A program made the position numbers and the translations under genes. A stretch of DNA of 54,819 nucleotides, filler included, from Catajapyx aquilonaris (lineage: Eukaryota), in the NCBI GenBank assembly GCA_000934665.2. It is 2 parts of 2 records of this genome, joined end to end, with 100 filler letters (N's around TTAATTAATTAA, not from the genome) between each part and the next. Parts side by side here need not be neighbours in the genome. Positions count along the whole stretch, not along the records: positions 1 to 27,367 come from JYFJ02005066.1; 1 more part is not named here. The stretch is one strand, 5' to 3'. Every line of letters starts with the position of its first letter. Within the stretch, counting starts at the first letter, position 1. This document shows, piece after piece, positions 1 through 49,406 of the stretch. The notes beneath the pieces were generated by a model, which was not told the origin of the DNA, ran no database searches, and worked only from the letters and a program-made list of their open reading frames with translations.

Positions 1-504
1 GTTGCCAAAGCATCCTGGTCGCGCGAACTGGGCTCACTTCGCGAGGGCATAAACAGGCCTTGGGAAAGTCAGCAAAAGGTTCGACCTCGAGAGAGAGGGG
101 GGGGGAGAGAGGGGGGGATTAATGTTTCCTCCAAGAAGTGGGAATACTGGGAAAACACTGCGTGAATGAGGAAAATGTGTGTGCGCGCGTGTGATCTCTC
201 CCATCTGCTACTCACCTATTCTCACCGGCCTGTTCCCGCCCGTATCCCTGTACCGACAGTGCGGGGCAATATAATAGGCTAATTCCCGTCTTTCTTTCTT
301 TTAAATAAGCAACTCATGAAGCTGCTGTGTGCAATCAATCAGCGCACTTTTTCTTATGCGAAAATCTCAATTCTTGACAGTCTTTGAAATTTTGTAAAAA
401 TAGCAAAAGGGCCATTTTTGTAATAAATACAGTACCATGCATTTCCTCTTCAGCACTGTTAGTCATCCCATCAGACAGTGTCTATTTAGATAACTCTGTT
501 CATG

Positions 505-1045
505 GATCATTCTGGGACTGATTAGGGCCTATATTTGGCCCCATTGAGTACTTTCAAGGCGCACATGCGTTCCTTCAAATGCAATTATTTTCCTTAAATC
601 AAAAAAGTCCTCCTGAGATTTTTTTCTATGTGAGGGAAAGGGTCTGAGCTACAACATTATTTAAAAATCGGATTTTTAAATTAGGCGGATTTTTTTTAAA
701 AAAAATTTGAAATTTTGAAAATGGGACAAAATTTTCAAAAAAGTCAAAATACAAATTTTCAATCCTTAGTGAGATTGGGCTCTCGAATCTCTTCAAAGGG
801 AGCGGTCTACGACGTCTGTAGCTCAATTGGTTCACGAGATATGACCGATTTCTGAAACCCTACCTTCCGAAAATGACGTTTTTTTCGGTGGGCCTATCTC
901 CGGGGAGGGGGGGTAAATCTCAAAACCGCGCAAATGGTATTTTTGAAAGACGTAATTAAAGCGATTCGCCGATTTTCGTCAAAATCTGACAACCCAAGGG
1001 TCAATTTTCCTTAAAAGCTCGGTGAATTGACATGGAATGACCCCA
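505..1045. mobile_element. Non-autonomous DNA transposon fragment (family uncertain) in an ABCC intron
   Basis: Direct repeat CTGTTCATG at 496-504 and 1046-1054; ends (T)GGATCATTC ... GAATGACCCCA are imperfect inverted repeats; AT-rich internal sequence typical of such elements. Confidence 0.5.
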
Positions 1046-1237
1046 CTGTTCATGAGGGGACATTAGTCAAACTGAAGAGAGAACTTACAGAAAAATTAGA
1101 CATCCAATATGTTTGCAGTTAGTGCTGGTGCTTGTCCTTGTGGAACAATAACTTTAGCTAGGGGCCACGTATGAAGGTGGAATACATTCAAGGTGTTTGT
1201 AATGCTCCTGTTGATGCAAATTTCATGTTACTTCTAG

Positions 1238-2010
<773 letters not shown>

Positions 2011-2607
2011 AGCCTTTTGTGTCGATCTTTTATGAGTTTTGGCATGCTCATATGCTCTGAGTATGATTTTTTTGAAAATGTTCCACTTCTCAAAATCAGT
2101 TGCATTGTTTGGTAGGAGTTATTGCATAGTGTGTGTTGAAAAATTTATGTGCACAAGTACACAAAGTATTATGATAGGAATTTGCACAGGAGAATGCTTT
2201 TAAACATTATTTTCATTATATCAGTACAGGTGCTACAAAACTGCTCTCTAACACATACACATGTACACACGCCCAAAACTGGATGTTACTGCCACTGGCA
2301 GTCATACCGGTATAGCCTACCGCTTGTAACAACAGTCCTGCATGATTACGTTCCAGAGCCTGCCACAGCTGCATGGCAGACATTTCCATCCTTATGAACT
2401 CTTATTAGCATCTGGACAGGTTTCATACTTTGAAATTAAATCTATCTCTTTAAAAATTAGGTAATTTGACCTACCTGGTTGATGCACACAGGCTTCAATT
2501 ATGACATATGGTTTTGGTGCACTTAAGTGGGATGTTATTGACATGTTTATCCTGTTAACGTTTATGATATGGTGGATCATGTACTTAATTGTACTGAGTA
2601 GTAGAAG

Positions 2608-2670
2608 AATAAATACACATCTACATGAAGATGTATAAATGGACTGAACAATTACTGTTATTGAAATAAA
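2608..2670 (+). terminator. Candidate polyadenylation signals of the ABCC gene
   Basis: AATAAA at 2608-2613 and 2665-2670, about 600 nt after the stop codon. Confidence 0.45.
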
Positions 2671-2946
2671 AACAATGCATTCCATGCTGATTATTTTGAA
2701 AACTGTGACGAAATCAACAGTGGCCTCTCATTGTATAATAATAATTATTGATTTGCACACTGCAGGAATTTCAGCGTATTGTCGTGCAGTATATTCAGAA
2801 TAAAATTTTTACGAGTTGTAGAGAAAGTGGATGTTTCAAGAGATTGGCAGCTTTGACTTGTAGGTACAGTTGCCTTCATAAGTATCTTTCCACACCTGAA
2901 ATAGTTTCTTCCACTTTTTACATGCAGCCCACATGTAGAACAGGTA

Positions 2947-3020
2947 CTATCGGGTTCAAATACTTTTGGCCACTTTATCCTGGTCTTGAAGCAACCCTTC
3001 ACACAGACCCCATGTTAAGG

Positions 3021-3057
<37 letters not shown>

Positions 3058-3108
3058 GGGTTGCTTCAAGACCAGGATAAAGTGGCCAAAAGTATTTGAA
3101 CCCAATAG
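2947..3108. repeat. 59-bp near-perfect inverted repeat enclosing a (GT)n microsatellite
   Basis: Arm 2947-3005 is the reverse complement of arm 3050-3108 with one mismatch; the (GT)n tract lies at about 3023-3055. Confidence 0.9.
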
Positions 3109-3582
3109 CGCATTCTTGTGCAGAAATAAGGGTTGAGAAGGCATTGACAGGGGAGGGCAGAGCAGAGCAGGTGATGGGGGGCGGGGGGTTCAAATTTGTG
3201 TTTGCGAACTTTATGAATGCCCCTCGTATTTCAACATGAAGTGCAATTATACCAGGCACTCACTTGTCAGTGTCACATGAGGTTGGCTACATCAGATGTC
3301 AAGACATGCTCGAGACATGAGCAAGACCAGTGCAACATTACTAGCACGAATGTCAGGATACGCTGCATGAATAAGATCAGGTGCAGGTAGAAGGAAAGTC
3401 ATAGGACCACTATAATCATAGGACCACAAATAATTTTATTGTTCAAGTGTCCATACCAATTATGTAATTATATACTACTTGCACTTTTAAATTTGGTATA
3501 TCTAGATAATCTACTATCTATCAATGGTGAAATTTAATACACTGTGTTATCACTAAGAAGAAGGGGTCATGTCCCTCATCTT

Positions 3583-5828
3583 CTACTCAGCGGGCAGAGT
3601 AGGGTCTGGCACACGCAGCTTAAAGTCCTCAGGTAGCTCATCCTCTGAGTGGACCCTGTCGGAGAAATACACCCTGCGGATGCGGCAGTTAGCATGAATC
3701 TTGACTCGCACGGTCTCGATGAACTTTGTTCCAAAGGCTCGCTTAGTCAGGTCTCGAAGGTTGATCTGGATATGGTTCCAGCCTTCGACCAAGTGTAGTG
3801 GCAGGATGCAGATAAATGGCTGCACCGTGGTTCGTAAGTGGTAGTTACAAACTTGGATGAGCCTGTACAAGTTCTTGTCATCCTGGACCTATGGAGAGTG
3901 GGGTCATAGATATGACTAGTGATAATAAACACTGCCTATCTTGAAAAAATTGGTTAGTGTTTGCTATCATTCGGGGAAGTTACATCAAATGCAATTTATT
4001 GTTTTATGTAACAATACCTCATTGCCATGGCAGCGCAATTCCAGACCAAAGAGTTCTGCTATAATGTACAGGGTGAATCTGATCCCCACCGACAGCCATG
4101 TACCAATGGCATAATGGGCACCAGGGGATCAATTAATGTAGAGGAGTCATCATGTCTAGGCCACCTCATTACGGAGATGAACGATCATTTGCGAAGTAGC
4201 GATTGCGCTTAAGCGTTATTGTCAAATAGCCGTGCATCTAGGGGGGACTGCATTCTCAGAGCCCTTAGTGACTAACCCAATCGCAGTTTACTTGTCGCCC
4301 AATGACAGTAGCTGCTACTGTGCCCTGCGATGCGATTGGTGGCTGAAGGTTTACATACCTGCCAGGATACTTTGTACTACATGTTTGAAGGCAATTATCC
4401 CCGTATAATGAGGCAGCCTAGACATGATGACTCCTCTACATTAATTGATCCCATGGTGCCCATTATGCCATTGGTACATGGCTGTCAGTGGGGATCGGAT
4501 TCACCCTGTATATAATTATATATACCTAGAGAGAGTGGCAACCCTGTTCCCCTTGCGCAAGGAAACGGGGTTGTGGCTTCTGCACAAGAAGGGAGATCCA
4601 GACAGAAGTGGGGCTTGTTCATGTCAAGTTTGGACCCGATTGTGCTTAGCTTTTGAACTACCCTGTCACCGTCACCAGTATACTGGTGACGGTGACAGGG
4701 TAGTTCAAAAGGACCGCATCCTGGTGCACAGCCCTAAGCCATGCCATCGAAGTTAGAACAGCACTTTTGGTTGAAGATAGAGGTGGCGAGATGCCATGAC
4801 AATGCCCAGTACTACCACGACTTGGAACACCATATGAGACCAGCGATACGACGCAAGCGACCAAATTTCCTGAACACCAGCCCCATGACCAGCCCTATCG
4901 CGTTGCCATGTCGCAGCTGCAGTGACAGAATTATTGCACGTTGGCAATGGGAAACACTTCAGCACCCTCCTTACTCTCCAGACATGACCCCTTGCGATTT
5001 TGATTATTAATTTTTGTTCACAAAAATGAAGGAACCAGTGCAAGAAACGTATCCAGAAAGCAATAGTACACGCTTTAGGGCGAGTGATTGCAGGTACCAA
5101 CAAACATCACTCTGCTGACGTGCCATTACTGCGACAGGCGAGGATCCGTTGTGAAAATTCACAATTTAATGCATTCAACCACAATAATAATGGAATGCAG
5201 GAATGCTACGGCACCACTTGTATGAAAGACAATGTTCTGATACTAGTAAACTGAAATAGGCTACAGGTTTTTTTTGTTGTTGTATTACCCCATGATAGGG
5301 TCATGGGCCCTTATTGGGGGGAAGGGGAGATTCCCAAGGGAGGTCACTCTTAATCGGCTACAGGTTTCACTGCTGTGTCTAGAACTGAAGCAATTCTCCT
5401 GGCAGAAATATTTCTGACCAAATTACGCACCAGGACCTCAAACATGAAGTAAATGTTGAGGTTCTTGACTATCAGGCCCAAGATGGGCAGCTCGAGTCCG
5501 AGGATGTCACGGGGGTCTGGCGGGGATGTGATGAAGGTGGTGTAGACGCTGGGGCCCACCACTTCTAGCACCAGAGACTGTAGGTCTTTGTCGGTCATGA
5601 ACCTGATCTGCCCAGCGCACATCTGCAGGGATCGTAAGAACGGGATTTTAGTCTTGGTAAAAACTACACTCTATTGAAGCTGATATTGCATTGCCTTCTT
5701 CCACTAAGCTCGACCCGCCCTTCAATCTGTCCTGCTCTCACCTGCTTTTCCCAGAGATTGAGTGCCTTCCTGCCCACGGGGTACAGCATGGACAGGAATC
5801 CAGGTTTGTTGTACATGTTCCTGAGCAT
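3583..5828 (-). CDS. CFAP20/BUG22-like protein (divergent paralogue), 3 exons, 194 aa
   Basis: Exons 5828-5742, 5622-5431 and 3888-3583 are joined by phase-0 GT-AG introns. Protein [16 protein letters not shown]...QSLVLEVVG...GWNHIQINL...[28 protein letters not shown] matches CFAP20 motifs along its whole length. Minus-strand AATAAA at 3440-3435. Confidence 0.92.
4069..4508. mobile_element. Tc1/mariner-type MITE in CFAP20-like intron 2
   Basis: TA|CAGGGTGAATC ... GATTCACCCTG|TA with terminal inverted repeats of about 95-110 bp and a TA target duplication. Confidence 0.85.
4741..5040 (+). mobile_element. Internally deleted mariner transposase relic
   Basis: Reads [17 protein letters not shown] (mariner-like N-terminus) fused to RPAIRRKRP...[18 protein letters not shown] (the mariner YSPDLAPxD motif); an [12 protein letters not shown] sequence follows after a frame disruption. 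Confidence 0.85.
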
Positions 5829-6107
5829 GGCTGGAGTTCCTCTGGACTGGACGACTTCCAAGAAAGGCGTCTGATGGTGCGGTACCTTCCTCTCGAGCTG
5901 TGTTTTGCCCCTTACGTTCGTCTATTCACTTGGTGGGGTTGGGGAGGTCTACTAGAGTTCTGGAAAAGACTACGACGTACACCCTGTGGTCTACAGACTG
6001 AGCTTTCCACACTGTTATTGTAAACATTTGCACAGATCTCCTTGGAAACCACACGGCGACAATATTCGATACGAACCACCCACCTGTGTTTATTAATTAA
6101 CTGCCAT

Positions 6108-6358
6108 GCGACACGGTGGCCGAGTGGTTAGCGCCGTAGCCTTCCACCTCTAAGGTCCCGAGTTCGATCCCCGGGTCGGACGGAGGATACTTATGTGGAT
6201 AGAGTTTCGATGGGTTCTCTCCGTGTTCGCGTGGGTTTTCTCGGGGTTCTCCCGTTTCCTCCCACTATCAAAATCCATCACATTACAGGCAAATGATTAA
6301 AGTCGGTTATTCAAAAGATGATCCCCTAAGAGGCCCAAGGGGCCTATCACGGGGTATC

Positions 6359-6410
<52 letters not shown>

Positions 6411-6425
6411 ATTATTATATTATTA
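6108..6425 (+). mobile_element. Young tRNA-derived SINE with V-domain-like core and (ATT)n tail
   Basis: A box TGGCCGAGTGG at 6117-6127, B box GAGTTCGATCC at 6160-6170, (ATT)n tail from about 6360, and an 18-bp TSD TTATTAATTAACTGCCAT at 6090-6107 and 6426-6443. Confidence 0.9.
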
Positions 6426-6719
6426 TTATTAATTAACTGCCATAAATGAGCAGCCTTCAGAAGAGCCTTGGAAATCCTCTGTACACGGACTGTATTGCAT
6501 TACAGATAATTGCAATTAAAAGCGGAAGAGCGAAAGAAATCGGTCGTATTAAATATGTATAAGGTGACTAAGGTCCTTGAGTTACAATGGCAACAATGAC
6601 TTTCAACACAGTAATCCAATGGTTGAAAGGCTGTGGTGACTTCAGTCCACTGTCAGGCCATGTTTGTACATTACAAGTACTGTACAGTACCCTTCATAAA
6701 GAATGGTATGACTCTATAT

Positions 6720-6973
6720 CAGTGGTTCCCAACCTTTTTCGAGTCGTGAACCCCTTTTATGAGAGTCAAGTAACCTGCGAGCCCCCCNNNNCCCCCCCCC
6801 CCCCTCCTCGAGGATTAGTAGAAGATTAGTGTAGTGTGGGCATACACTGTATTAAAATTTGTTTTAAAAAACCTTTGTGGTGAAATCTCATATAAAATTT
6901 ATTGCAAGTAAAAATAACTGAGGCCACCATGCGACCCTCAAGGAGGTTGTGACCCACAGGTTTGGAACCACTG
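6720..6973. mobile_element. hAT (Charlie-like) MITE
   Basis: CAGTGGTTCC...GGAACCACTG termini with a perfect 8-bp TSD CTCTATAT. Confidence 0.85.
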
Positions 6974-7713
6974 CTCTATATGACGAAATGTTTAGCCTGT
7001 TCTCAACCCTTGGGTCGCCAGCATGTTTTTAGGGGTCATGAGGAAGTCCAGGAAAAGGGAATCGGAATAAAATAAAAAAGCGAAGAAAAAAACAAAGCAA
7101 AGTAGGAAAATTTTAGGGGGAAATTCACATCAAATATGTAAGCATTGCACCTGGTTGAACATTTTGGCAATTAAATTTTTTTTTAATGGGGATGGGTCGT
7201 ACGAGTCACCAGAGGTCCAGAAAAGGTTGTCCATAGGATTTCATCAAAATAAGGTTTGGAATAATGCTGGATCATCAGGATGAACATTTCGTCCATAGAG
7301 TCGTTCCATTCTTTATGAACAAGACTGTACACTACCTTCTACTGATATCTTCCAGGATTTCTGAGAATCCTTTATCTTTTTATTACCAATAGTCACCATA
7401 CTTTGCTCATGATAATACAGTACCTGGTGGCAAAGGGTGTGGCTGGAAAAATCTTCAAGGATGTACTGGAAACATTGCCATGGGAAAAAAGTGGACTGCC
7501 CTATTCAAACACACACTGCTGGGTACTCCCTCAGACCTTATTCTCCAAAATGTGAAGCAACACCCTTGGGGTCAGTTCAGTGGTAGAGACCAAAATGTCA
7601 AGTCACCTGAAAAGGTGATCTTGGACAAATGGAAGTTTTCATTCTTCCATTTCAGTTTGGACAAGTTTCCGAGAAGATGGACCTCTTAGACTCTCTCTGT
7701 GACTTAGAGAAAT

Positions 7714-7715
7714 AT

Positions 7716-7770
<55 letters not shown>

Positions 7771-7810
7771 TTTTGTTTACCCCGTGATAGAGCAGTGCTT
7801 TCTTGGGGGC
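7714..7810 (-). mobile_element. 3' fragment of a SINE/LINE with (AAAT)n tail
   Basis: Reverse complement reads CCCCCAAG...CTATCACGGGGTAAAC(AAAT)n, the same 3' end as the SINE at 6108. Confidence 0.6.
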
Positions 7811-7954
7811 ATACTTAGAGAAATAAAAATATATATTGGTCTTATGACTTGTGTTTCAGCTTCATGTCATGAACTTATCTTGTATGATGTCTCTCATACT
7901 GTGTGTATCAGAACTTGGCTACCAATCATATAATGGAAATGTCAAACACTCCTC

Positions 7955-8125
7955 TAACAATAATGGATAACAATCATCACAGCCTTACACCTCGGAAGTC
8001 CCAAGTTCAATCCCAGGGTTCGACAGAACACACTCTCTCATGTGCGTCTTTCGAGAAGCTCTCTCTCGGTGTTGAAATGGGTCTTCTTGGCATTCTACCA
8101 TTTCCTCCCACAGTCCAAAAACTTC
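7955..8125 (+). mobile_element. Degenerate tRNA-derived SINE with V-domain-like core
   Basis: B-box-like AAGTTCAATCCC followed by ...TTTCCTCCCACAGTCCAAAA, colinear with the 6108 element. Confidence 0.55.
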
Positions 8126-8204
8126 TCTTCCCCTCTCACCCTCCCTTATGCCAGATAGCCTTAGTTGTTTGGCTCCCCAGTCAACCAACCATATTGATAT
8201 ATAG

Positions 8205-8468
8205 CAGTGCTACCCCGAACTTAATATTTGGGGTCACGAGAATGGGTAACAAATTATTTTCACAAAATGATTCTAACTCTCTTGAAAATTATGCCCATAA
8301 GGTAAGTTACAGAACAATTCAGATATTCAACAATATTTATCAGTTATTTTCATTTCACTGTTTACCTGTATTCTCATGTTGAGGGATCAAAATGTGCACA
8401 TATAGGGGGTCACAAATTTTACGGGACAATTTTTTGGGGTCGCCAATGAAAAAGATTGGGAGGCACTG
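8205..8468. mobile_element. hAT-type MITE
   Basis: CAGTGC...GCACTG termini; 8-bp TSD ATATATAG/ATCTATAG (7 of 8 match). Confidence 0.7.
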
Positions 8469-8849
8469 ATCTATAGGACACAAATTGTATTTTTGTAAAT
8501 CTACAACACACTGTAATGTACCCTTTGCTGTTCAGACATGAACTATCTGGGGGTACCCTTCCGTAACAGGAGACCCCCTCACGTTTACCTATCCTAGGTG
8601 TATATCTGCTGAAGGATAGGCATGAATCTGCTGAAGGATAGGTGTGTATTCACCAGGAAGGAAGGTTAGGTCATGCAGTAGGTTGGTGCAGCCATGCCCC
8701 TATCCCTGCCACATTCAGTCTGCCATTATGAAATCCTATCGGGCCCTATACAACCATCATCATCAGGTAAAGTCTATGGAAACCAAAGACACTCGAGTTC
8801 TGACAGCTGTATAATGCCATATGGCTGTCTTGCATTTTTTTGACATATA

Positions 8850-9075
8850 CAGCTGAATCCAGATATAACAGCCTCTTGGCTATAACGAACTTTCGGTTAT
8901 AACAGACTCAAAAGGCTGGTCCCGGCAAACTTCTAGCAGGCCCTGTGTATTTAGACTCCTGATATAATAGCTACGCTATTTTTTAACCTCGCTAACAGAC
9001 CATTTCTTGGCCTCTCAGCAGGAAAATATGCTGCTTTTGATTACTCAGCTTCCTTTCCCATGCGAGGAAGGGACT
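8850..9075 (+). mobile_element. Tigger/pogo-like non-autonomous element fragment
   Basis: Starts TA|CAGCTGAATCCAGATATAACAG; homologous sequence recurs at about 48745-48920 and, inverted, at about 54490-54691. Confidence 0.65.
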
Positions 9076-9956
9076 GCATACTGGAGATGGGGTCATTTTC
9101 CTACCCGTCACTTATATCCTCCTGAGACCTGGTGTTGTCATATGTCACCTGGTGAAGTACATTTAGGCCTGATGATTCATAGTGAGCCAGAAATACAGGC
9201 TTTTCAGTCTTCACTAGCATTAAGCAGGTGCAGTCAAATCTTTGCATTCCATTATGTCAAAATATTTTTTTGACTTAATGGATTTCTCCTGTATGCCCAT
9301 AATAGGTTGCATTTTTTCTATTTTGTAGGCAAGTAAGTGAGTATACTGGATATTCAGGAAGGATTTTTAGCCTTTGATGTTCCCCTCAAATATTGGATGC
9401 ATTGTTGCTCCGTCCCCAGTATTGCGGAGAGGAGGATTTTCGCAATCATTGTCCAGGATAGCTCTTTAACAGGTCAAGCTTGGAAACATTGGGCAGCAGG
9501 GAGAGGAATGTGGTAGAGGAGGAGCAGTTTGTTTGAAACAGAAAATCAGGGAATAGAGCAATTATCAGAGCTGGGTGGAAAACACCTTCGCTCCTCTCCA
9601 GACCATGTTCGCAACATGGAACAAGTAGAGAGACTAAGAACACCCCCATTGAGACAAACCTTTTGCAGACTATGTAAATGGTAGAGACTATTAAAAAGCT
9701 TGCAAGAATTGATACTGCAATACCAAAAATCTGAAGCTGACCCCAAAAGTAAGGCACATATCTGGTTAAATCCTGTTTATTGAACAAACCAAACAGGAAT
9801 GAACTATACTCTTCCATTGGACATTACAAAATCCTCTTGTTTGCTGAATGAATCAATGAGAAAAGCATAATCCTCTCCTGCTGGGCATTACAAAAGCGCA
9901 CTGATGTATTCTATTTAGACTATTTGAATTGTGCGCAGGCTTAAGAGCCTTCAGTC

Positions 9957-10173
9957 TTAACTTCCAGAATATCGCCTTGGGAAGTCAGATTTAGGGCTGC
10001 TTGAGGTGATCGGCATGGCCCGTGGCTCCCCGTCCACCAAGACGTAAGGCCCAGTGTAGTAGCGGAAGAAGATGGACCCACCCCTCTTTAGCTGATTGAT
10101 GTTAGCCAGGTGGGTGTAGCAGCTGGTAGACGAGGGGAAGCTCATCATGTAAGGAGGACGGCTTACAGCCAGG
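9957..10173 (-). CDS. Orphan putative terminal coding exon, product unknown
   Basis: Strong acceptor TCTTTTCCTATTGCAG precedes an open frame LAVSRPPYMMSFPSSTSCYTHLANINQLKRGGSIFFRYYTGPYVLVDGEPRAMPITSSSPKSDFPRRYSGS* with many G/C-ending codons. No family recognised and no upstream exon identified. Confidence 0.4.
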
Positions 10174-10323
10174 CTGCAATAGGAAAAGACAACATTATTT
10201 CTTGCAAGAAAAGAATACCTCTATGTTTTTGGCATTTAGTGTTCACCACTAACAATAAGTGTTTACAATCTACAGGATGCAGTAAAAGCAAGGCAACCTT
10301 GATGAATTAAATAAAAGCTTTAA

Positions 10324-10633
10324 GGGGGGCATGGTAGCCTAGTGGCTTATGCTACTGGCTAGCCAAGCGGGAGGGCCGGGGTTCAAATCCCATCCCTGTC
10401 CCCTCTGCTTGGTCGGGTCTTTTTCCGCTTTTCACCCGACATGTCCGGGCAGACTCTCACTCCCTACTCTGCCCAGGGCCAGGAGAAAAGGTCTGATGCT
10501 CTGAGGGTCTGCAATGACTAGAAACTATTTAAGAGTGCCCTCCCTTGGGAACCTCCCCTTCCCCACACGCCCATGGAGCAGGGCGTTGCGACGAAAACAT
10601 AAGTGTGTATGGGAAAATAAATAAATAAATAAA
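10324..10633 (+). mobile_element. tRNA-derived SINE with (AAAT)n tail
   Basis: A box TAGCCTAGTGG at 10335-10345, B box GGTTCAAATCC at 10380-10390, (AAAT)n tail at 10615-10633; no clear TSD. Confidence 0.75.
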
Positions 10634-10961
10634 GGTCCGTGCAATACCAAGAAGGTCAGTACTACCCAATATTATTACTATTATATTATTATTAATAAAG
10701 GCTTTAATATAAGTGTTCAAGTAATTGACCTTTGAGATTCCACATAGAAGGCAGGATGATACCTGCAATACAAATGCCTGTATGTGCCATTGACCGTCAT
10801 CTTGCATTTTTAAGCACGCATCTTAAATGATGCAAAGAAAAAAAAGAGTAGGCTATGTTTCTATTTTTGTCCACATTTCTCATTAGTCTCTCAAACTTCA
10901 TAGGTTTTAAGTTAATTAATCAGAGCGACATTTATCCTCCTGCTCACCACAAGAACTTCTA

Positions 10962-11476
10962 CCGTATTACCTCTCATATTGCGGCATGCCGGTGTCGGTG
11001 AGGTCGACCAGTTTTTTAAAATGCTTGATCTGGTGGCTATACCGGCATGCCGGTATAAGGCGAGGTTTTCACATATGTTACATTATCCTTTCTGAACTGG
11101 ACATTTGCCTGAAAAGCAAAATTCACGTAAAGGCTATCAAAAAGGCTCATTTTCTGGCAATAATCTCTCTTTAAACAGTATGTTGGAGCAGGGGACCCTG
11201 TCAAAGCAGGCTGACGATGGGATTGGTCACACAATCTACCTTTTTTATATGCACTGTGCAACAGAAGTTGCATATTCTCACAGCCTGTACACTCGCCCAT
11301 TTTCAATGTAACATTATTTTCGTATGGTACCAGATGCATTACAAAATATTTGGCAAGGATCAAAATTACGGAAATCTACCTCGATTATTGCAACATGCCG
11401 GCCACCCCCGGGTTATACCAGCATGCTGGTCGACCTCGTTTTATACCGGTGTGCCGCAATATGAGAGGTAATACGG
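10962..11476. mobile_element. Tc1/mariner-type MITE
   Basis: TA|CCGTATTACCTCTCATATTGCGGCA ... TGCCGCAATATGAGAGGTAATACGG|TA; about 50-bp TIRs with a TA TSD. Confidence 0.88.
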
Positions 11477-12422
11477 TACTTATTCACACATTTCCACATT
11501 CTGTGCCCATGCCTGAACTGTTGGTTCCGATATTTTATTCATTCCATGTTTGATGCTTTGCCGTGATCAACAGCCACAATCCTTAAGTAAACTTTGGCCA
11601 TCACTTTCCCTTCATTGGCCAAGGCATGCCAACTCCAGTTTCTTACAAGCCATGATTGTACCAGGAAGTGTCACCTTTACTCTCAACACATTACTTCTGC
11701 AAGCCTGTTTATTTTCATGTGCATAGCTTCCTTGCTTCATGCCCCTCATACCTCAAGGGGAAGAATACCTTGGGTGACCAAGGATGCAAAGTCCAGTTAA
11801 TTTTAAAATCCAGATTTCTTAGTTGGGATCTAAGTATGCAAAAACTGAGTTACACTTTTCATCTAATATTATTAGGAACACACTCACAAAATATTATTAC
11901 ATGTACAATATGAGCTGAAACTGATCATGGAAAATATCCTCTAATCATATCCAGAAGTTTCTGCCCAGAAAAATGGCCTCATGATATAAAGAAACAGTCA
12001 ACGTATGCACTATCTCCCCTTCCCCCACATCCCACGTGCAACCATACACGAAGCCAGTACAAAATCATGACTTTGGAATTTGAGTTGGTATGTGCACAGC
12101 TGGAAACCCCATTATAATCCAGGAGCGGATGTGACAATGACTCAGCCTGGCTCAAATGAACAAAGATCATCCTGTCCCAGGCACCAGAGCGAGATAAGAG
12201 CGTAAAAAATACATGAACACGTCAGAGAAAACATCTCAAGCTGCAGAGCAATGCGCAGGGGCGGCCACGCAGACAACAGGAATTCTCCAGTTCGACACGT
12301 ATGCTCAACAAGTGCTCTTGGCCCCAGCAGTTCTGGTGGGCTACTGATAGTAAGTTATAGTGATTTTTCCAATTTATTTAATGCTTAACATTTACTTGTA
12401 GCACGGTGGTTTTTGACATGTA

Positions 12423-13546
12423 CCGTATTTCATGACATATCAAACGTTATGGGCATAGAAGATGTGCCCCCATTTCAGCATGGCATATTCAGGAAAAATA
12501 GGGTAGGGTAGGGTAGAATTTATAGAGATTGGTTAACTTACACGGGAAGTTAGTTGTTAGTCGTCATCTACACACAAATTTTGGGACTGACTAGCGGAAA
12601 AGATGTCCGACCAGTCCGCTGATTTTCGCCATATGACTGGTATCACAGCTTTTGGACCTTGTGCGCTTGAAAAATCAGCGGTTACGGGCCTACCTGACCT
12701 GGAACACTTTCCTGACACTACTGCAGGGCAAGAAATTTCGGAATAAACACAGGTTTGCTTATTAAATGGCATAGACTATCCCTACTGCACACTGGCGGAA
12801 TAACTGCTGTCATAAAGTGACGAAGATCTAACCATCGGGCGGGGCTTCCATGACTGACAGGCTGTGCTTTTACTGTAGTAGGCCTGGCACGCCAGATGAC
12901 AGGGGAAAGCTTCTTGCATTTTTTTCTTAGCCGACCATGTGCCGAATTCTCTTCCTTCCACAGCACCATTTAATCAGGGAGTGGGGAGCTCGTCTGGTGG
13001 AAAGGGGGAATGGGTGGCAAAACTCGTGTGGCTGGTAGAAATGACCATCTGAGGTAAAATTAGCCTATGGTGGGCCTCAACTTCACATATAAGACGCAGG
13101 CCAATTTTTAAAGGCATTTTTGTGGGGGGGGAAAGGCTGATCATTCCTACGCGATGAAGTGGCAGGAGTTGGGGTGGAGGTATGGCGGGCAGTTCAGAGA
13201 GCGCGTCCAAATGGGTGGGTGTTTCGGTATGACTTTTTCCCGTGTACTGTGGCCCCGCCAGGGCAAGGTCCGTTAATTAGCCCAATACTTTTAGTTAATT
13301 GCAAAGCATCAGCAGAGCTGGGCACTTATTGTGGGTTATGTAACTGCAAAAATTACTGTATGATTTACGGTGCCACAGGCAAACAAACATTATTATGACT
13401 TTACCATGGCGGGATGCACTTGGGCATTACATGCATTCGGTCCACCCATTCGGATGCACTCTCTGAACTCTGAACCCTGACTCCCGCCACTTCATCACGT
13501 AGAAAAGATCTTCCGAAAAAAGTGTCTTATATGCAGTCAAATGCAG
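12423..13546. mobile_element. Tc1/mariner-type non-autonomous element inserted into an array unit
   Basis: TA|CCGTATTT ... AAATGCAG|TA. The flanks rejoin to GACATGTAATTAGG, which is contiguous in the intact units; internal TATAAGACG repeat at about 13088. Confidence 0.75.
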
Positions 13547-13640
13547 TAATTAGGAATATGTGATACCAATATGGTTAGGGTGTGGTCTGAGATTCTGCAA
13601 GATTCCTATGACAAGACACTGCAGATTCTCATGTACCTGT

Positions 13641-13713
13641 CCAGGTAAACCAAGCTTGCATCAAATGTGGCTGAGATGCAGGACCACTTTGGTACAAGCT
13701 TGGTAATACCTGG
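13641..13713 (+). ncRNA. Candidate pre-miRNA hairpin H1 (other copies 17987-18059, 18439-18513, 18894-18966, 19808-19880)
   Basis: Stem CCAGGTA/TACCTGG, ACCAAGCTTG/CAAGCTTGGT, ATCAAA/TTTGGT, GTGG/CCAC, with compensatory changes between copies. No expression evidence is available. Confidence 0.5.
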
Positions 13714-13848
13714 TAGGATACCAGCAACAAGTGAAGATTATTGGAGATTACACTTGCTTCTCAGGTTCTCCAGTTATTGGCAAACCTGACAATATGAACT
13801 GGTTTGGCAATCTCTATAGAACCTGAGGGGACAGTTTGCAACCTCTTA

Positions 13849-16234
13849 AGGTCTAAACTCATATCGACTTGAAACTACGACTTGTGCGTCAAAATCGTAC
13901 TTTTGCGTGTGCGTTTCCATGGCCTTGTTTGCGTCGGAAAGAGGGCTGTTTCCATATCGACTTGTGCGTCAAATTCGAACTTGTGCGTCAAAGTCAAACT
14001 TATGCGTGTTCGAATCCATCCCGCCGCGCCGGCTGCGTATGCAATTCCATCCCCGAGGGCACATGCGCAGTGTGTCGTGCAGTACGATAATCGAACAGTG
14101 CCAACAATCGAATGTCAACAATTACATTGACCACGTTCCAGTTTCGTACCTCTAGCGGCATGATGTCAAAATGGCGGCGAAATGCTATCATTCGCGGGAG
14201 TCACATATTACTTGCCCCAACCTGCTTGTCCTCATCTGGTGGTCTGGCCCCCGGGCAGATCATCCTAAGATTTTTTTTTAAAGTGAGGAGTGACTTGCCC
14301 TTCCCTTTCCATGTGATTGCGACTTGCGCAATGGTCATTATTACCTGCCCATTGTGAATGGGCCCTTCTCTAGCACGTCTGGTGGTCTGGATACAGGGCA
14401 GACTAGCCAGGGATTTTTTGAGGAGTGAAGAGGAACTACTATTTGGCTATTTGCTTTTCATTAGATTCTTTTTTAAATGTTTAATGTAACTTTCCTTGGT
14501 CATGACACTATATGTAACACTTTTCTTGTCCATGGAATTTCATTGGTATTTCCATTAGGTCACTCGTAACTCACAACAATGCGCATTCATTTTGTCTGAA
14601 CATAATTTTTGACCTCGGGGCAGTCAAAAAACCATATTTCTCAAAATAGTTGGGCCATTCCGAATGAAGAGAGTGCATAAATGTTGTTCGACCATTTCGG
14701 AATTCGCAGGAAAAAAATCACGGCAGTACAGAACTATGACATAACGCTGCACATCAAGTTTCAGCCATATTGCGAAATACCGTGGCGCCCCCGAGATTTT
14801 GGAAGGAGGTGAAAATGGGGCCTTTTTAGGAGAATTTTTATTCATTGGTGGAAGTGGTCAGAACTTAAGAAACGTATACAAAGGAGGAAGACGAGGAAAA
14901 CGCAACTTTGTAATATTGTTGGCTTTTCAGTGAAAATGTAACTAGAAAAACGTATGCAGCATTCCATTGGTCATATACTCAACCTACTCTACCTTTGTCC
15001 CTTTTAAAAGTCATTGCTTTGGCTCCTTCCTAATAAACGAAACAAATAAACCACGTGTCCGAGAATTTTGCCCCCGACAATATACGTATTATAGGGATGT
15101 ATTTGCATAACATCAGTCACATTTGGTGATGTCCCGGGTCCAGACCACCAGACGTGCTAGAGCAGAGGCCATGAACAATGGGAAGGTATATGAGAAAGTA
15201 GCACTAGATTCACAAATCGCTCAAGGAGCAGTCTGCCACAGTGCCACGGGGCCGATTCACTTTGGGCATATGGCAAGGGAAGGGCAGGTTCCTCCTCACT
15301 CCAAGATGATCTGCAGCCAGTGGTGTGTAGTGGGGGGGGGGGGGGNTTTTTTTTGCCTACGGCGGACTTTCCCTTTCCCCCCAAAGGAACTTTCTGGGTG
15401 CGCCACAGTTTCGTCTGCTTCGTATTGTTCCGGGCTCCATTCATGAACGTGATACATTATTGTATACAGAAGAGGCACAAGGAACAGTGACCATTGTTGG
15501 GTTACCCCTGCTGACATGGTGTGCCAAGAAATGAGCTGCAGAAGAGACTTTGGTGTACGACTACTTCCCCGATGTCGAAAGGAGGGGGGGGGGGCAATTC
15601 TCTCCCTTTGCCCCCCCCCTCCCCCCTGCGAAAAACTCATGGTACGCCACTGTCTGCAGCCTCTTGGTCAGATCACCAGATGCGGACAAGCAGGGGCCAT
15701 CCACAATGGGCAGGCAATTCGAGACTCCAGTGGATGATAGCATTTCGTCGCTCTTTGACAGCCAGCCAAATTTTCGCCTCTACAGGGGGGAAACTTGACA
15801 GTGGTCAATTTGCAGGGGTGCCAAAAGAAGGGGACAGTGGGCGTGGCAAGCAGGGGAGACCCACGTGACCACACACGAGGACTGTGATTGGTTACCGCTC
15901 GTGCTTGTGGCATGTGCTTGCGCATATGATCTACCTGGAATAGATCGACGACGCACGCACAAGGCGGCATGCGGGCGGTGAATGTCAACACGAACCCACA
16001 ATGCGTAGCAATGGTGTCGAATCGAATTGTTGAATATCGATCGACCTGGGGCCCACACGCACCAGGGTGCCAACAGTTGCGTGCGGTGAATGGCAACCAC
16101 GGTCAACCAATGTCAACAAGAGGCCTACACGCATGCAGAAACGGCGTTCCAAAGCACGCAAAAGTACGAATTTCGCGCACAAGTCCGACTTCGACGCACA
16201 AGTCGTAGTTGCAAGTCGATATTAGTTTAGACCT
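13849..16234. mobile_element. PIF/Harbinger-like non-autonomous element (~2.4 kb) with nested internal repeats, inserted into an array unit
   Basis: TTA|AGGTCTAAACTCATATCGACTTG ... CAAGTCGATATTAGTTTAGACCT|TTA; 3-bp TTA TSD; subterminal GACTTGTGCGTC repeats; the array unit resumes after 16237. Confidence 0.85.
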
Positions 16235-16553
16235 TTAGTCGTTCCTCATTATCGGCGTAGCAATAAAGTACACTTCTGATCCCATTTATGTTTGTAGGCT
16301 CCTGGCAGTTTAGTTATAACGAGTGCCCCCATTTATTTACCGCTCAACATGCACTTGTGACAATTGTGGTCACTGGCATGTAATTAGGCACACTTGATTC
16401 CAATGCAGACATTCCTTGCTAATATGACAGATTTGGTTCCAGTCCACCCCATGAAGTGATTATCTCCATAAAGATAATGACATATTTTTTTCACTTGCCG
16501 GGACAAATTAAAACCTTACAAGGATGTTTACACTATCCTATAATGCTATAAAG

Positions 16554-16761
16554 CAGTGGTTTCCAACCTTTTACCAACTGCAACCCCCTAAACATGTTTC
16601 CACAAATGTGCGACCCCCCCCCCCTCCTCCCCCGGCCCCTTCTACAACTGCCCCCTTTCCAGAAACATACACTGTGTACGGCCACAAAAATTGTTCAATT
16701 GAAACAGAAATTGTAAAAAAAAAGTTGAACCACGGCTCAAACCCCCAGTTGGAAACCACTG
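16554..16761. mobile_element. hAT (Charlie-like) MITE
   Basis: CAGTGGTTTCCAAC...GTTGGAAACCACTG; TSD CTATAAAG/CTAAAAAG (7 of 8 match). Confidence 0.82.
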
Positions 16762-17257
16762 CTAAAAAGGATGATTCACTAGGAAGCTGGCCCAGCTAAA
16801 TGCACATAATTTTCCAAGTGGCATACTGAAACAGGGAGATTTCACATCAAAATAATGTACTAAACTAAATGCACATAAAACAGTTCTCTCACTGACAGTG
16901 TTTGCTTCATGTGGCCACAAGTCATCAACAGTTAATGGTGTGGCTTACTGGTACCCAGTCATCTCATATTTTGATGCGCCTTGTTTCTTTCAGGCGGTAG
17001 TGCTGTACTCTTTCCCTGGGTAAGCAGCATGAATTACATGGTTGCTGAGGGTGCATTTCTTGTGGAAACATATTGGATGACAAAATCATTTCATTAAAAA
17101 AAAAAAAATCTACCCAGTGTTGGGATGGGTGGAATACCACCAATTTTTCTTACAAATTTTCTTTTGCATTTTTCTTTCTGGTGCAGGTATCAGGATAGGG
17201 ATTTGTGAGGAGGGGACACTGGTGCAAGTGCGTTGTCTTTATGTTGGGGGTCAGGTT

Positions 17258-17438
17258 AAATTCATTTAATATCTGCCATCTGGAGTTTGTTGTGCAATTC
17301 AGCTGACGGCCCCCTAGCATGTGAGATTCAAATCTGTCATGCTTCAAATTTCTTCACTGATTTCCAAATGTACTGCTTGCTAGGGGGGCGGGCACCGAAT
17401 CACACAGAGAACTCATATTGGCAGATCTTAAATGATTT
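17258..17438. repeat. Degenerate inverted repeat (MITE-like)
   Basis: TCATTTAATATCTGCCA...CCCCCTAGCA pairs with TGCTAGGGGG...TGGCAGATCTTAAATGA; arms about 60 bp. Confidence 0.6.
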
Positions 17439-18098
17439 CATAATCCAATACGTTTTCACCAGGAACACTCTCTCAGAAACCATGTAAGTCACGCTACTTT
17501 AATGTGGAAAGAGAACAGCACTACTGCTTGAGACAAGCACAGTACTTCAACTGACGAGAGGTTAGGCTCCAGTAGACCATGTCCATTAACCAGTGATGAC
17601 TCATGAGCTACATGACACAAACCTTCCCGGCAAAGGAAATGTTTCAGGTACAACTGGACATGAAATTGATGTTTCCATGTATCACTAGGTAAACTACTCA
17701 TACTTACCTGGGCCAACTACATAGTGAATCACCCTATATCAAGTTTGCTATAATGCTAGGCGGCAAAAAAAATCCCAATAGTAACAAAATGGCACCCCTT
17801 GACTTGGATGCAGTTGATGTATCATTACAGGTCCATGGGAGCAAGGAAAGTGTCAAAAATAATTAATATTACTTTAATTTAAATTGCCACAAAGGGAAGT
17901 GCTGTAAATTGAGGTATGCTTGATTAGGGTGTGATCTGAGACTTGGCAAGAATCCAATAAGACACTTCAAATTACTATGTACCTGTCCAGGTGAACCATG
18001 CATGTATCAAATGCGGCTGAGATGCAAGACCCTTTTGGTACAAGCTTGGTAACACCTGGTAGGATACCAGCAGCAAGTGAAGATTATCAGAGATGACG

Positions 18099-18180
18099 CT
18101 TGCTTCTCAGGTTCTCCAGTTCGTGGCAAACCGGACAATATGAACTGGCTTGGCACAATCTGCTGAACCTGAGAGGTAAG
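18099..18180 (+). ncRNA. Candidate pre-miRNA hairpin H2 (other copies about 13753-13834, 18552-18633, 19007-19082, 19929-19998)
   Basis: Two 36-nt arms around the 10-nt loop ACAATATGAA; 30 of 36 positions pair (3 are G-U) with no bulges; covarying pairs across copies. Confidence 0.55.
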
Positions 18181-19187
18181 TGCACTGAAGTTTGCAACCC
18201 CTCACTGATTCCCCATTACAGACTTAGCAGGCAAGTACACTTCTGATCCCAGTTGTCTCTGGGTTACTGGTAGTAATTTAGAGTGAGTGTGCCGATTCAT
18301 TTACTGCTCAACATTTACTTGTGGCATTTGTGGTGTTTGACATGTAATTAGGCATATATGATGCTAATGTGGTCAGGATGTGATCCGAGATTTTGCAAGA
18401 CTCCTAAGACAAGACACTTCAGATTTTGAAGTACCTGTCCAGGTGAACTAAGCATGTATCAAAAATGTGGCTGAGATGCAAGACCACTTTGGTACAAGCT
18501 TAGTAAAACCTGGTAGGATACAGCAGCAAGTGAAGATTATTGGAGATTATGCTTGCTTCTCAGGTTCGGCAGGTCGTGGCAAACTGGATAATATTAACTG
18601 GGTTGGCACAATCTGCAGAACCTGAGAGGAAAGTGCACTGAAGTTTGCAACCCCTCATTGATTCCCCATTACAGACTTAGCAGGCAAGTACACTTCTGAT
18701 CCCAGTTATGTTTCTGGGTTACTGGTAGTAATTTAGAGTGAGTGTGCCAATTTATTTACCACTCAACATTTACCTGTGGAATTTGTGGTGTTTGACATGT
18801 AATTAGGCATATATGATGCTAATGTGGTTAGGGTGTGATCTCAGATTCTGCAAGACTCCTACGACAAGACACTTCAGATTCCTATGTACCTGTCCAGGTG
18901 AACCATGCGGGTATCAAATGAGGCGGAGCTACAAGACCCCTTTGGCACAAGTTTGGTAATACCTGGCAGGAAACCAGCAGCAAGTGATATTGGAGATGAC
19001 CCTTCAGCTTCTCAGGTTCTCCAGTTCGTGGCAAACCTGATAATATGAACTGGCTTGGCACAACCCGGTGAACTTGAGAGGAAAGTGCACTGAAGTTTGC
19101 AACCCCTCACTGATTCCCCATTACAGGCTTAGCATGCAAGTACACTTCTGATCCCATTTATGGTTCTGGATTACTGGTAGTAATTTT

Positions 19188-19677
19188 CAGTGGAACCTTG
19201 TACTTTGAACTACACTAATTTTGAACGTTTGAGAGTTCGAATACAAAGGAATTCAAGCTAGAGTTTCAATAATGCTTCTAAATTCAAACTGCTTGAATAG
19301 TGAAAAAACACTCTTGCTCCTTAAACACCATCTGTTGTGCATCTAAGTCTTCCTTTGCTCTCGCTGTGAAAGCATCTCTTGCATAATGCATGTGTCCTTT
19401 TAGTGCTTTTTTCACTTTATTTACAATATTTATGTATTTTATTTATATTGTTTTCAAATTTTAAATTTATTCTTCAGGGCTTTTAGTTTTGTTATTTGTA
19501 GGCTACCTGAAATTATGTGTATTTGCTCTTGAAGTTTATTGAGATGGGTACTGTTTAGGGTCTGGGATTGGATTAATCCACTTTCCATTATTCCTAATGA
19601 GGAAAATTGGAATTTGTACAATTCAGAGTTCAACTGGCCTCCTGAAAAGAATTAGTTTGAAGTACAAGGTACCATTG
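19188..19677. mobile_element. Tigger/pogo-like MITE inserted into an array unit
   Basis: CAGTGGAACCTTGTACTTTGAACT ... AGTTTGAAGTACAAGGTACCATTG|TA; array sequence continues on both sides. Confidence 0.75.
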
Positions 19678-21299
19678 TATAGCCAGTGTGTCAATTTATT
19701 TATTGCTCAATATTTACTTGTGGCATATGTGATGCAAATATGGTTAGGGTGTGATCTGAGACTCTGCATGATTCCTGTGACAAGACTTCAGAATCTGATG
19801 TACCTGTCCAGGTGAACCCAGCATGTATCAAATGTCGTTGAGATGTAAGACCACTTTGGTACAAGCTTGGTAATACCTGGTAGGATACAAGCAGCATGTG
19901 AAGATTATCAAAGATGACTTATTGCGCATCTCAGGTTCTTCAGTTTGTGGCAAACCTGATAGTATGAACTGGTTTGGCACTTCCTGATGAAACTGAGGAG
20001 AATTGCACTGACGTTTACAACGCCTCAGCCACAGTTAAGTAATTCCAAATTATGTGTAGCAGGCAAGTACACTTCTGATTACATTTGTATGTGTGGGCTG
20101 TGGGAGTAAGTTACATTTACTGCTGAACACGTACTTGAAGACTTTGGGGGGAAGGGGGNGGGGGGGGACTATCAAGGGTACTGTAAGTGTTGTAAATGGA
20201 TTTGCTGAATGAAACTTGGCACAATAATAGGGTAAGGGGTCCAAATTTCGACATCCTTACGTCGTTTTCCTCTTGTTAGAAAATGGTTGAACGCAGCAAT
20301 GTAAGGAAAGTGAATGTTAATAATACATTGAACATTTACCTACTAGGTCCCGCAATGAAAATTTTATAACAATTTATAGGAAAAAGCACAAAATTGAAAA
20401 AGTGAAAACACCAATTTTTTCAGTTTCAAAAAAAGTGTTCCTAATTTTGGAACCTGCATTTTAATGGGAGGACAGGTGTACAAAAAATACATTTCTAAAT
20501 TTTGGTATGATTACAATCATACCACACATAATAATTTTTTACAATTGATTGGTATCACCTAGATGAAAATATCTTTCACCGTAGCCTTCGGAAATGTTCG
20601 TAGATTATAATTATGTGCATCTGTATTTACGCCACCCGCGTGATATATTTAATGGAATAACGTCACACGTCAAAGTCTCATCACTGTAAACGAGTTGTAA
20701 ACAAACACTTACTGCACGAATGTAAATAGACATAACTCCCTGCTGAATTTTTCCCGGTAAGTGGACCGTTCAGCGGAAAACCACCAAAAACATCCCGATT
20801 TACTATAAATCTTAATGACACTGTTCTACAAACAAAGTATTTTTCTTTTTTCTGAAGATCTGAATAGTGATTCATATGGTAATTTTCGCTCTGAATCAGA
20901 ATCTTAGCTCAGAATGTTTCTGTCAGGTACAGTCTTTGAGATATATCGTTTTAACACTTGGAAAGGCTCGGGGGGCTGACAATTCGGCCTTTTTGTATAT
21001 TTTTTCGGTTAGTGGAAGAGCTCAAAATTCAAAAACATATACATGTCAAATGAAACAGGAACACGACGACAATGCGCCTATGGAATATGGTTTCCTTTAC
21101 AAATAATATTTTAAGCAGAAAAATGTGCATGCCATTCCATTGGTCACGTACTCAGTCACAAGTCAAAGAATTTTGACCTCAACAATTATTAGAGATGTAT
21201 TTTATCTGATTACGATTATTTTACTGATTATCCGGCCACACCAGTGCATTCATTAGCTCGGGTAATAGGGCGTACATTGTATACTCGTATGTAATGGCG

Positions 21300-23432: not shown

Positions 23433-24019
23433 CAGGGCCGGATCTAAAGGGGGGGGGGNGGCACCTGCCCCGGGCGGCAAGAAGGTGGGGGCGGCATGTC
23501 TTGTCCCTGGAAATGAACTTGTCAAATGCACATTGCACTGTTCTGTGTGCAGCTCCGGATTTACTCCCCCGGCCGCCCTTAGGCACGTGAGATACGGCCG
23601 CCCCTCCCCCCCGGCCTGACACTTAAAAATGCAAATGTTTAAATTGTGTTCTCTCCTTCATTTAATGTTATTTTATTTTAAAATATTATATTGAAAGTTA
23701 GGGCCGACCAGAGGGCGGCCGCCCTTCGGCAATGACCTTTTCTGCCTCTAGTGGTAAATCAAGCTCTCAAAAATTCGATTTTCTTTGTGATCTCGCCTTA
23801 ATTTCATAATTGCATTTGAGAAATATTATTTATTGCAACTCGCGGCTGCCCTTCCGCAATTACCTTTTCTGCCTGTAGTGGCAAATCAAGCTCTCAAAAA
23901 ATCGATTTTCTTAGTGATCTCGCCTTAATTTCATAATTGTATTTGAGAAACATATTTATTGCAACTCGCTGCCACCCCTAGGCCAGTGCCTACTGTGCCT
24001 AATGGGAAATCCGCCGCTG
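23433..24019. mobile_element. hAT-like non-autonomous element containing a ~127-bp tandem duplication
   Basis: CAGGGCCGGAT...ATCCGCCGCTG termini; direct repeats at 23715-23841 and 23842-23967; no TSD visible. Confidence 0.55.
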
Positions 24020-49255: not shown

Positions 49256-49406
49256 TGGTATCATCAGTCCAAAAAGAATTGTCCCAGTCATCCTGATGTG
49301 TGTGCTGCACGCTCGACACACACCATGTAACTTACATGGTGTGTGTCGAGCGGCCAGCCCACACGTCAGGATGACTGGGAAAGTTCTTTTTGAACTGTTG
49401 ATACCA
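49256..49406. repeat. 151-nt palindrome/foldback with 75-bp arms
   Basis: Symmetry centre at 49331; perfect core CGCTCGACACACACCATGTAA-C-TTACATGGTGTGTGTCGAGCG, with few mismatches and no indels in the outer arms. Confidence 0.9.

Follow-up and report, generated by a model that had tools for sequence, protein, structure and literature searches.

We analysed a stretch of 54,819 nucleotides (nt; filler included) from the genome of Catajapyx aquilonaris (assembly GCA_000934665.2), hereafter called the window, and found that an old, transposon-interrupted tandem array at positions 12337-20137 on the + strand probably encodes a new, lineage-specific, multicopy microRNA (miRNA) family akin to the mir-3851/mir-3836 clusters of Tribolium castaneum; we put the probability of this reading at roughly 0.7. 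Each unit of the array carries two hairpins, here called H1 and H2. The reading is carried by what we observed of the hairpins, the paralogy of H1 and H2, the constraint on pairing, the geometry of processing motifs in H1, and the low depth of the unit in DNA sequencing runs. The relatedness of H1 and H2, including a predicted 3p seed in common, the in-register H1 motifs, and the low DNA depth are additions to a preliminary description of the locus, which had proposed a polycistronic, lineage-specific locus of about ten hairpins. That proposal is the best explanation and is partly supported, but its argument for the strand, based on G-U pairs, fails.

When one unit was used as the query in blastn, matching pieces were detected at 12337-12422, 13546-13835, 16242-16405, 17926-19160, 19685-20079, and 20114-20137. 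Since these pieces follow one another in unit order, they originally formed a single head-to-tail array of five units of about 453 bp (A to E), now flanked by terminal stubs, as delimited by blastn with the unit, Tandem Repeats Finder (TRF), and the junctions. Four insertions (approximately 1.1, 2.4, 1.5, and 0.49 kb) split the array, and intact tandem repetition remains only at 17924-19186, where TRF gave a period of 453 bp and 2.8 copies. The tandem array of approximately 450-bp units drawn earlier at 12280-20140 is therefore right as to its five units and their period, but it is not continuous. The copies are 81-90% identical within the hairpins and 76-89% identical elsewhere, and they differ by indels of 1, 2, and 4 nt. 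A covariance model built from the hairpins matched exactly ten, H1 and H2 each occurring five times as had been counted before, together with their antisense images, and matched nothing else in the window at E < 0.5. No third hairpin was found in the spacer by this model, and no + strand segment of the spacer passed a z score of −2.5 in a sliding scan.

Drosha cuts approximately 13 nt above the stem base, and the predicted arms were defined by setting the cut at that distance. The putative H1 precursors on the + strand lie at 13646-13710 (H1a; 5p arm 13646-13667, 3p arm 13688-13710; z −5.8), 17992-18056 (H1b; 3p arm 18034-18056; z −4.5), 18444-18510 (H1c; 3p arm 18488-18510, with a 2-nt insertion in the 5' arm; z −7.1), 18899-18963 (H1d; 3p arm 18941-18963; z −0.9), and 19813-19877 (H1e; 3p arm 19855-19877; z −4.7). 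Those of H2 lie at 13765-13824 (H2a; 3p arm 13803-13824; z −4.0), 18111-18170 (H2b; 3p arm 18149-18170; z −6.4), 18564-18623 (H2c; 3p arm 18602-18623; z −5.9), 19016-19075 (H2d; 3p arm 19054-19075; z −1.9), and 19935-19994 (H2e; 3p arm 19973-19994; z −3.0), again on the + strand. In the full H2b stem at 18099-18180, which encloses a 10-nt loop, 30 of 36 ungapped positions are paired, exactly as first described. With this cut, on which the assignment depends, the predicted 3p seed is UUGGUAC in four hairpins (H1a, H1b, H1c, and H1e), UUGGCAC in five (H2b to H2e, and H1d, in which the seed has changed to that of H2), and the variant UUGGCAA in one (H2a). The predicted duplexes have 2-nt overhangs at the base in nine of the ten hairpins. 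Predicted arms of 22-24 nt, loops of 16-20 nt, and precursors of 60-67 nt (22/16/22 nt, or 60 nt, for H2 and 65-67 nt for H1) fall within the ranges of MirGeneDB, where two imperfectly paired arms measure 20-26 nt each and the loop at least 8 nt, although copy D pairs weakly; the mean MirGeneDB precursor measures 60 nt, of which each arm takes up 22 nt and the loop 16 nt, according to the part of PMC11701709 used here. Folding of the copies on both strands supported the earlier expectation that they would fold better than shuffles: on the + strand, seven of the ten hairpins beat all 200 of 200 shuffled sequences, and for H2e 2 of 200 shuffles were as good. The minus-strand folds were also stable; the + strand energy was lower in seven hairpins, equal in one, and higher in two.

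Comparison of the copies indicated that pairing in the hairpins is likely to be under constraint, a judgement limited to five copies compared under a star tree. In H1, columns 107/169 change from A-U to G-C, with G-A in one copy, and columns 111/164 change from C-G to U-A; in H2, columns 242/275 are G-C or U-A, columns 235/282 are G-C, C-G, or U-A with two copies unpaired, and in H2a two neighbouring pairs, 241/276 and 242/275, have changed on both sides. All four compensatory changes quoted in the preliminary description are thus present, but the breaks had been left out: in the 60 pairs as a whole, pairing is lost in 17 changed cells, whereas 13 one-sided and 3 two-sided changes keep it. These numbers were compared with neutral simulations in which substitutions were scattered randomly over the hairpins of five related copies on a star tree. 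With the structure held fixed, 16 breaks were observed versus 29-34 in the simulations, and 7 mismatched positions gained pairs versus approximately 1.7. Because the fixed-structure test is partly circular, the structure was re-derived in each of 500 simulations, and we still counted 18 breaks versus 27 (P = 0.018) and 4 pairs with two-sided types versus 1.2 (P = 0.016), with P = 0.016 for the alifold consensus energy. After free refolding the summed minimum free energy was −370 kcal/mol versus −312 ± 17 kcal/mol, a value reached in none of 300 runs. The covariation score of 0.102, which relatedness among the copies can inflate, was reached by 1 of 500 shuffles, and slid controls gave 0.02-0.03. 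Paired columns diverge less (6.2%) than unpaired hairpin columns (12.0%; p = 0.008) or flanks (9.5%; p = 0.04). Mismatches have been retained as well: a G-G mismatch in H2 is identical in all five copies, and an A-A position in H1 is unpaired in all five.

The two hairpins of the unit are related to each other. The alignment of the H1 and H2 3' arms scored higher than expected by chance (P = 0.0006 in 5000 shuffles), and its score was not reached in any of 2502 background windows. The differences between the lower stems of H1 and H2 are two-sided changes, and the likeness is greatest at the 3p seed predicted for the + strand. H1 and H2 are therefore paralogues, which makes the array a single family. 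Among these paralogues only, 2 of 70 cells have changed in the predicted 3p seed and 19 of 140 elsewhere in the 3p arm (p = 0.014).

Further evidence came from the motifs that guide Microprocessor (described in PMC6943042, of which part was consulted). The cut site had been fixed from the stem base before the motif definitions were consulted. The motifs concerned, basal UG, CmR/mGHG, apical UGUG, and CNNC, lend support to a canonical animal miRNA gene but need not be present in one. At the predicted register, the H1 copies have a basal UG (4/5), a C at −5 (5/5), a mismatch at −6/+4 (5/5), a purine at +5 (5/5), an apical UGU or GUG (3/5), a CNNC (4/5), and a 3p arm starting with U (5/5). These hits add up to 31 of 35 on the + strand; the 21 other registers, counted over both strands, scored no more than 21, and a structure-preserving null yielded at least six of the seven motifs, whatever the register, in 0.7-0.8% of 4000 runs. 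H1a and H1e each have all seven motifs, H1b has six, and H1c five. The + strand is thus favoured by the H1 motifs, by folding energy, and by the likeness of H1 and H2 at the 3p seed, although it is not proven for H2.

Several results weigh against this reading or against the strand chosen for it. The CNNC and apical windows were chosen after H1 had been seen. CNNC is expected to start at +16 to +18, yet that of H1 starts at +15, one base short, so that H1a and H1e score 6/7 with the strict window. H2 has only 14 of 35 motifs on the + strand at the predicted register, as against 20-22 of 35 on the minus strand. The 3p seed has changed less than the 5p seed (2/70 versus 8/70), but this difference is not significant (p = 0.10), nor is that from the flanks (p = 0.07), and since the arm that pairs with the seed is also conserved, the strand cannot be read from the conservation of the seed. 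Single changes to G-U had been taken to favour a + strand transcript; the ratio of derived G-U to A-C from Watson-Crick consensus pairs is 8:7, which does not bear that out, and the consensus pairs themselves include four G-U and one A-C. With fixed structure, neither the two-sided changes alone (2 versus 0.9-1.5, P = 0.24-0.43) nor the share of changes that keep pairing (0.45 versus 0.36, P = 0.10) departed clearly from the simulations, and the P values near 0.02 are soft, given only five related copies and a star-tree simulation. Copy D folds near the shuffle level (34 of 200 shuffles were as good for H1d and 9 of 200 for H2d), and its hairpins are more diverged than the flanks in two of four pairwise comparisons; this copy is probably decaying. 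A + strand TATA match was absent from 9000-20800, and a scan for eukaryotic motifs showed nothing distinctive. The pattern shared by H1 and H2 occurs at 119 loci in metagenome contigs and 10 in viral contigs; folding and blasting all 129 revealed no relative, and the covariance model, run on 90 of them, gave chance matches only (best E 0.1).

If the locus is an miRNA cluster, we infer its transcription, processing, arm choice, and targets as follows. An ancestral hairpin would have been duplicated to give H1 and H2, and the pair with its spacer would then have been amplified head-to-tail into at least five 453-bp units. Mobile elements would have entered these units on four later occasions, and on each of them outside the H1-H2 block. 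A polycistronic non-coding transcript of the + strand would be cropped by Drosha/Pasha approximately 13 nt above each stem base into 60-67-nt precursors, from which Dicer-1 would free duplexes of 22-23 nt. The 3' arms would enter Ago1 as guides with the seeds UUGGUAC (four hairpins), UUGGCAC (five), and UUGGCAA (one), and the loaded 3p arms would repress mRNAs with matching sites in their 3' untranslated regions, copy number raising the dose. Purely by analogy, the predicted cluster may be expressed in germline or embryo.

We turned to sequencing depth for the copy number of the unit. Five sequencing runs contain the stretch: four, all from one sample, are probably of DNA, and the kind of the fifth is not on record; depth was taken from the assembled contigs of three runs, matched at 80% likeness. 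The summed depth was 25-121 in bins of the unit and 16-39 for the exact-match contigs listed, as against 400-11647 in bins of the inserted elements. Because summed depth is not an exact copy number, we used only the contrast, and this contrast with the neighbouring insertions indicates that the unit is not a high-copy satellite or transposon, a possibility raised when the array was first described. A contig of one run (depth 29.6) contains a unit that differs in sequence at 20003-20053 and in which 20085 is joined to 18741 and 18878 to 17977, so that a further unit or another haplotype exists outside the assembly. The run of a kind not on record holds a 168-nt contig (depth 2.1) identical to 18773-18940, from which nothing was concluded. 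The locus is non-coding: among 118 open reading frames (ORFs) of at least 65 amino acids listed around the array, 85 were scanned, covering 5.9-32.5 kb, and 84 were without a Pfam match and one had a sub-threshold match. No host gene for the array was found, four full-length homologues of the receptor described below having matched only its exon at 33.1-33.3 kb.

Four other explanations were weighed. The main rival, though unlikely, is that the array is a non-functional, low-copy tandem repeat with two palindromes, which arose by template switching or from a small inverted-repeat element, whose arms are kept alike by arm-to-arm copying, and from which small RNA is absent or lost. Template switching can create stems and multibase compensatory changes (PMC8794818, in the part available), and the adjacent two-sided changes in H2a are of this kind; the derived G-U and A-C changes without strand bias and the near-shuffle folding of copy D would also be expected of such a repeat. 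Template switching, however, gives perfect complements, yet the G-G mismatch of H2 and the A-A mismatch of H1 are retained in every copy, and it leaves unexplained why the H1 motifs occur in one register and on one strand, why the stems are of precursor size, and why H1 and H2 are most alike at the predicted seed. It is, moreover, a mutation mechanism and not a function, and may have supplied changes that selection then kept. It is quite improbable, in our judgement, that the hairpins belong to another structured small-RNA source, either a hairpin-RNA/endogenous small interfering RNA (siRNA) locus acting through Dicer-2 or a transposon-rich cluster of the PIWI-interacting RNA (piRNA) type, possibly transcribed from both strands. 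A 976-nt foldback within the array (z −10.8), four insertions within 8 kb, the stable minus-strand folds, and the H2 minus-strand registers with 20-22 of 35 motifs would suit such a locus. Ten separate, imperfect hairpins of 60-67 nt with central mismatches have the geometry of miRNAs and not that of long hairpins, though, the H1 motifs are specific to the + strand, and the foldback lies in a later insertion rather than in the unit.

The two remaining explanations are very improbable. The idea that the unit is a high-copy satellite or dispersed transposon, its hairpins being remnants of terminal repeats, has been largely refuted. Tandem repetition of the unit, and the presence in the DNA runs of at least one more unit that is absent from the window, would suit it; against it, unit-bin depths of 25-121 contrast with hundreds to 11647 on the inserted elements, and the hairpins sit inside the unit and are found at no other place in the 54.8 kb. 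That the hairpins derive from splicing, as tailed mirtrons, or are repeated small exons, is similarly hard to credit. In both hairpins CAG/GU coincides with or adjoins the predicted 5' cut, an AG follows the 3' arm within a few bases, and CAGGT, which is invariant in all ten hairpins, is donor-like in H1. Nevertheless, the lower stem below the cut is paired and differs between H1 and H2 by two-sided changes, neither of which a mirtron needs; the donor of H2 is poor, and the indels of 1, 2, and 4 nt and the 84 of 85 ORFs without a Pfam match do not fit mirtrons or exons.

The insertions were delimited as follows. A spacer part of unit A at 12337-12422 matches unit positions 8-94 and is separated by the approximately 1.1-kb insertion (12423-13545) from the remainder of the unit, which resumes at 13546 with unit position 92. 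The 2.4-kb insertion (13850-16233), which is non-coding, has terminal inverted repeats (TIRs; arms 13840-13907/16176-16243) and TTAA/TTTA flanks; it begins 25 nt past the end of the H2a 3p arm, reaches a summed DNA depth of 5075, and is not part of the RNA gene. It contains nested inverted repeats (14164-14249/15666-15760, 14342-14400/15130-15188, and 14282-14315/15267-15300), and no ORF with a Pfam match was found in it among the ORFs tested. The A/B spacer resumes at 16242-16405 (unit positions 410-456, then 33-117, by spacer alignment) and is followed by the 1.5-kb insertion (16406-17920), composed of a short TIR element (16554-16761), which has an 8-bp near-duplication and lies in the bin of depth 11647, and the long foldback (16765-17740). 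The foldback is imperfect (−350 kcal/mol), with outer arms at low DNA depth (46-99) and a high-copy centre (17078-17348), and is possibly an old foldback element or a source of long-hairpin siRNA. The D/E spacer is interrupted by a 0.49-kb element (19188-19677) resembling a miniature inverted-repeat transposable element, identified from its TIRs, a TA at its right side, its junctions, and its raised depth. All four insertions missed the H1-H2 block, which makes up approximately 45% of the unit; the hand-calculated chance of this is approximately 0.09, which is only suggestive.

Outside the array, the window is animal DNA and contains CFAP20 exons, Med27 exons, and a C2H2 zinc-finger ORF. Med27 (exons at 46753-48251, + strand) and the 321-amino-acid zinc-finger ORF (51766-52731, minus strand) are ordinary genes. 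Between two CFAP20 exons lies an ORF remnant (4445-5106) that was without a Pfam match, resembles a mariner transposase, and holds a near-perfect 63-nt palindrome (4649-4713) with sub-threshold Rfam miRNA matches. The first coding exon of a class A G-protein-coupled receptor (B0563.6-like; 32975-33427, minus strand) has named homologues in insects and a springtail. When four full-length homologues of this receptor were compared with the window they matched only the exon, at 33.1-33.3 kb, so that the remainder either lies further than 33 kb downstream, sits on another contig, or has been lost. A long stem with a 52-nt insert at 49269-49393, which scored 40.9 bits for mir-2483 on both strands, below the gathering score of 75, is probably an inverted repeat. 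A separate tandem repeat lies at 23715-23977 (period 127 bp, 2.1 copies, 90% identical).

If confirmed by reads, the locus would represent a so far unannotated miRNA family, one that annotation by homology would overlook and that was found from sequence alone. It would also be a compact record of the history of such a family, with two rounds of duplication, conservation and switching of the seed, a decaying copy, and transposons that spared the hairpins. The mechanism itself is known, as comparable clusters have been described in beetles, sawflies, and mosquitoes (parts of PMC8126727 and PMC4691753). The locus would gain in value if, in an early-branching arthropod, the cluster were switched on at zygotic genome activation. 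We consider it a tentative and rather doubtful extension that a multicopy embryo or germline cluster evolved independently here, in an arthropod outside the holometabolous insects, with the miR-263b seed re-invented on the opposite arm and seeds switching among living paralogues; were it true, the locus would test whether multicopy clusters for maternal clearance have a repeated and far deeper origin in arthropods than has been shown.

We examined whether the hairpins belong to a known family. An Rfam search of the whole window at E up to 1 gave 15 rows, none within the array, and a search of 17900-20140 at E up to 10 gave three chance rows, none on a hairpin; the view that the arms belong to no known family therefore held for Rfam. 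A literature search with five arm motifs revealed no arthropod miRNA among the matches listed, as judged by title and abstract, a search that does not cover the sequences in miRBase and MirGeneDB. A canonical animal miRNA gene is recognised by small-RNA reads on both arms whose 5' ends are homogeneous and whose 3' ends overhang by 2 nt, and an official miRNA family name requires conservation in at least two species. A search of openly available papers for small-RNA work on early-branching hexapods returned nothing specific, and six motifs had no match in the 47,159 readable characters of the PMC8126727 supplement, a portion from which miRNA tables may be missing.

The closest likeness to a conserved family is to MIR-96, the family of arthropod miR-263b and of miR-96 and miR-182. 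The miR-263b seed UUGGCAC is present in five of the ten predicted 3p arms. Two predicted H2 3p arms match nucleotides 1-8 of whitefly miR-263b-5p, as given in the accessible part of PMC12484754. According to the same source, however, miR-263b occupies the 5' arm, while all ten hairpins here have the corresponding seed on their 3' arm; past nucleotide 8 only 2 of 14 positions match miR-263b by inspection, and no hairpin had an Rfam match at E up to 10. Given that the arm, the 3' sequence, and the model all disagree, the locus was not filed in MIR-96, and the likeness of the predicted arms to miR-263b is one of seed convergence, not membership.

The known systems that the locus resembles most are fast-evolving clusters of insects. 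MIR-2941, MIR-3841, and MIR-6000 form tandem clusters in Endopterygota, which in some species exceed ten units, and these clusters of holometabolous insects are united by seed and not by overall sequence, in the part of PMC8126727 used here; their seeds are AGUACGG and AGUACGA, and that part shows no sequence match to the Catajapyx locus. More generally, the predicted seeds differ from those of the early-embryo clusters (the mir-3851/3836, mir-2941/3841/6000, and mir-309 families: AGUACG/A, CACUGG, AUCACA, UAAAGC, and GACUAG). Early-embryo clusters are characterised by expression that surges when the zygotic genome is activated and by targets that are enriched among cleared maternal mRNAs. The Tribolium mir-3851/mir-3836 clusters consist of lineage-specific hairpins that arose by local duplication and share a few 3p seeds, and mir-3836-3p has the seed of the conserved miR-3 family with little similarity beyond it (PMC4691753, in part). 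The candidate Catajapyx family likewise consists of multiplied, lineage-specific hairpins, and the seed predicted for H2 would stand to miR-263b as that of mir-3836-3p stands to miR-3, a convergent seed on a multiplied 3p hairpin. The seeds given for the Tribolium clusters in that portion of PMC4691753 (AGUACG, AGUACA, CACUGG, AUCACA, UAAAGC, GACUAG, and AAUACU) are not found here, and those clusters are proven by reads and by blastoderm expression (PMC4691753, same portion), whereas the Catajapyx cluster is predicted from sequence. The two systems also differ in what was multiplied: in Catajapyx, amplification has acted on a fixed cassette of two hairpins.

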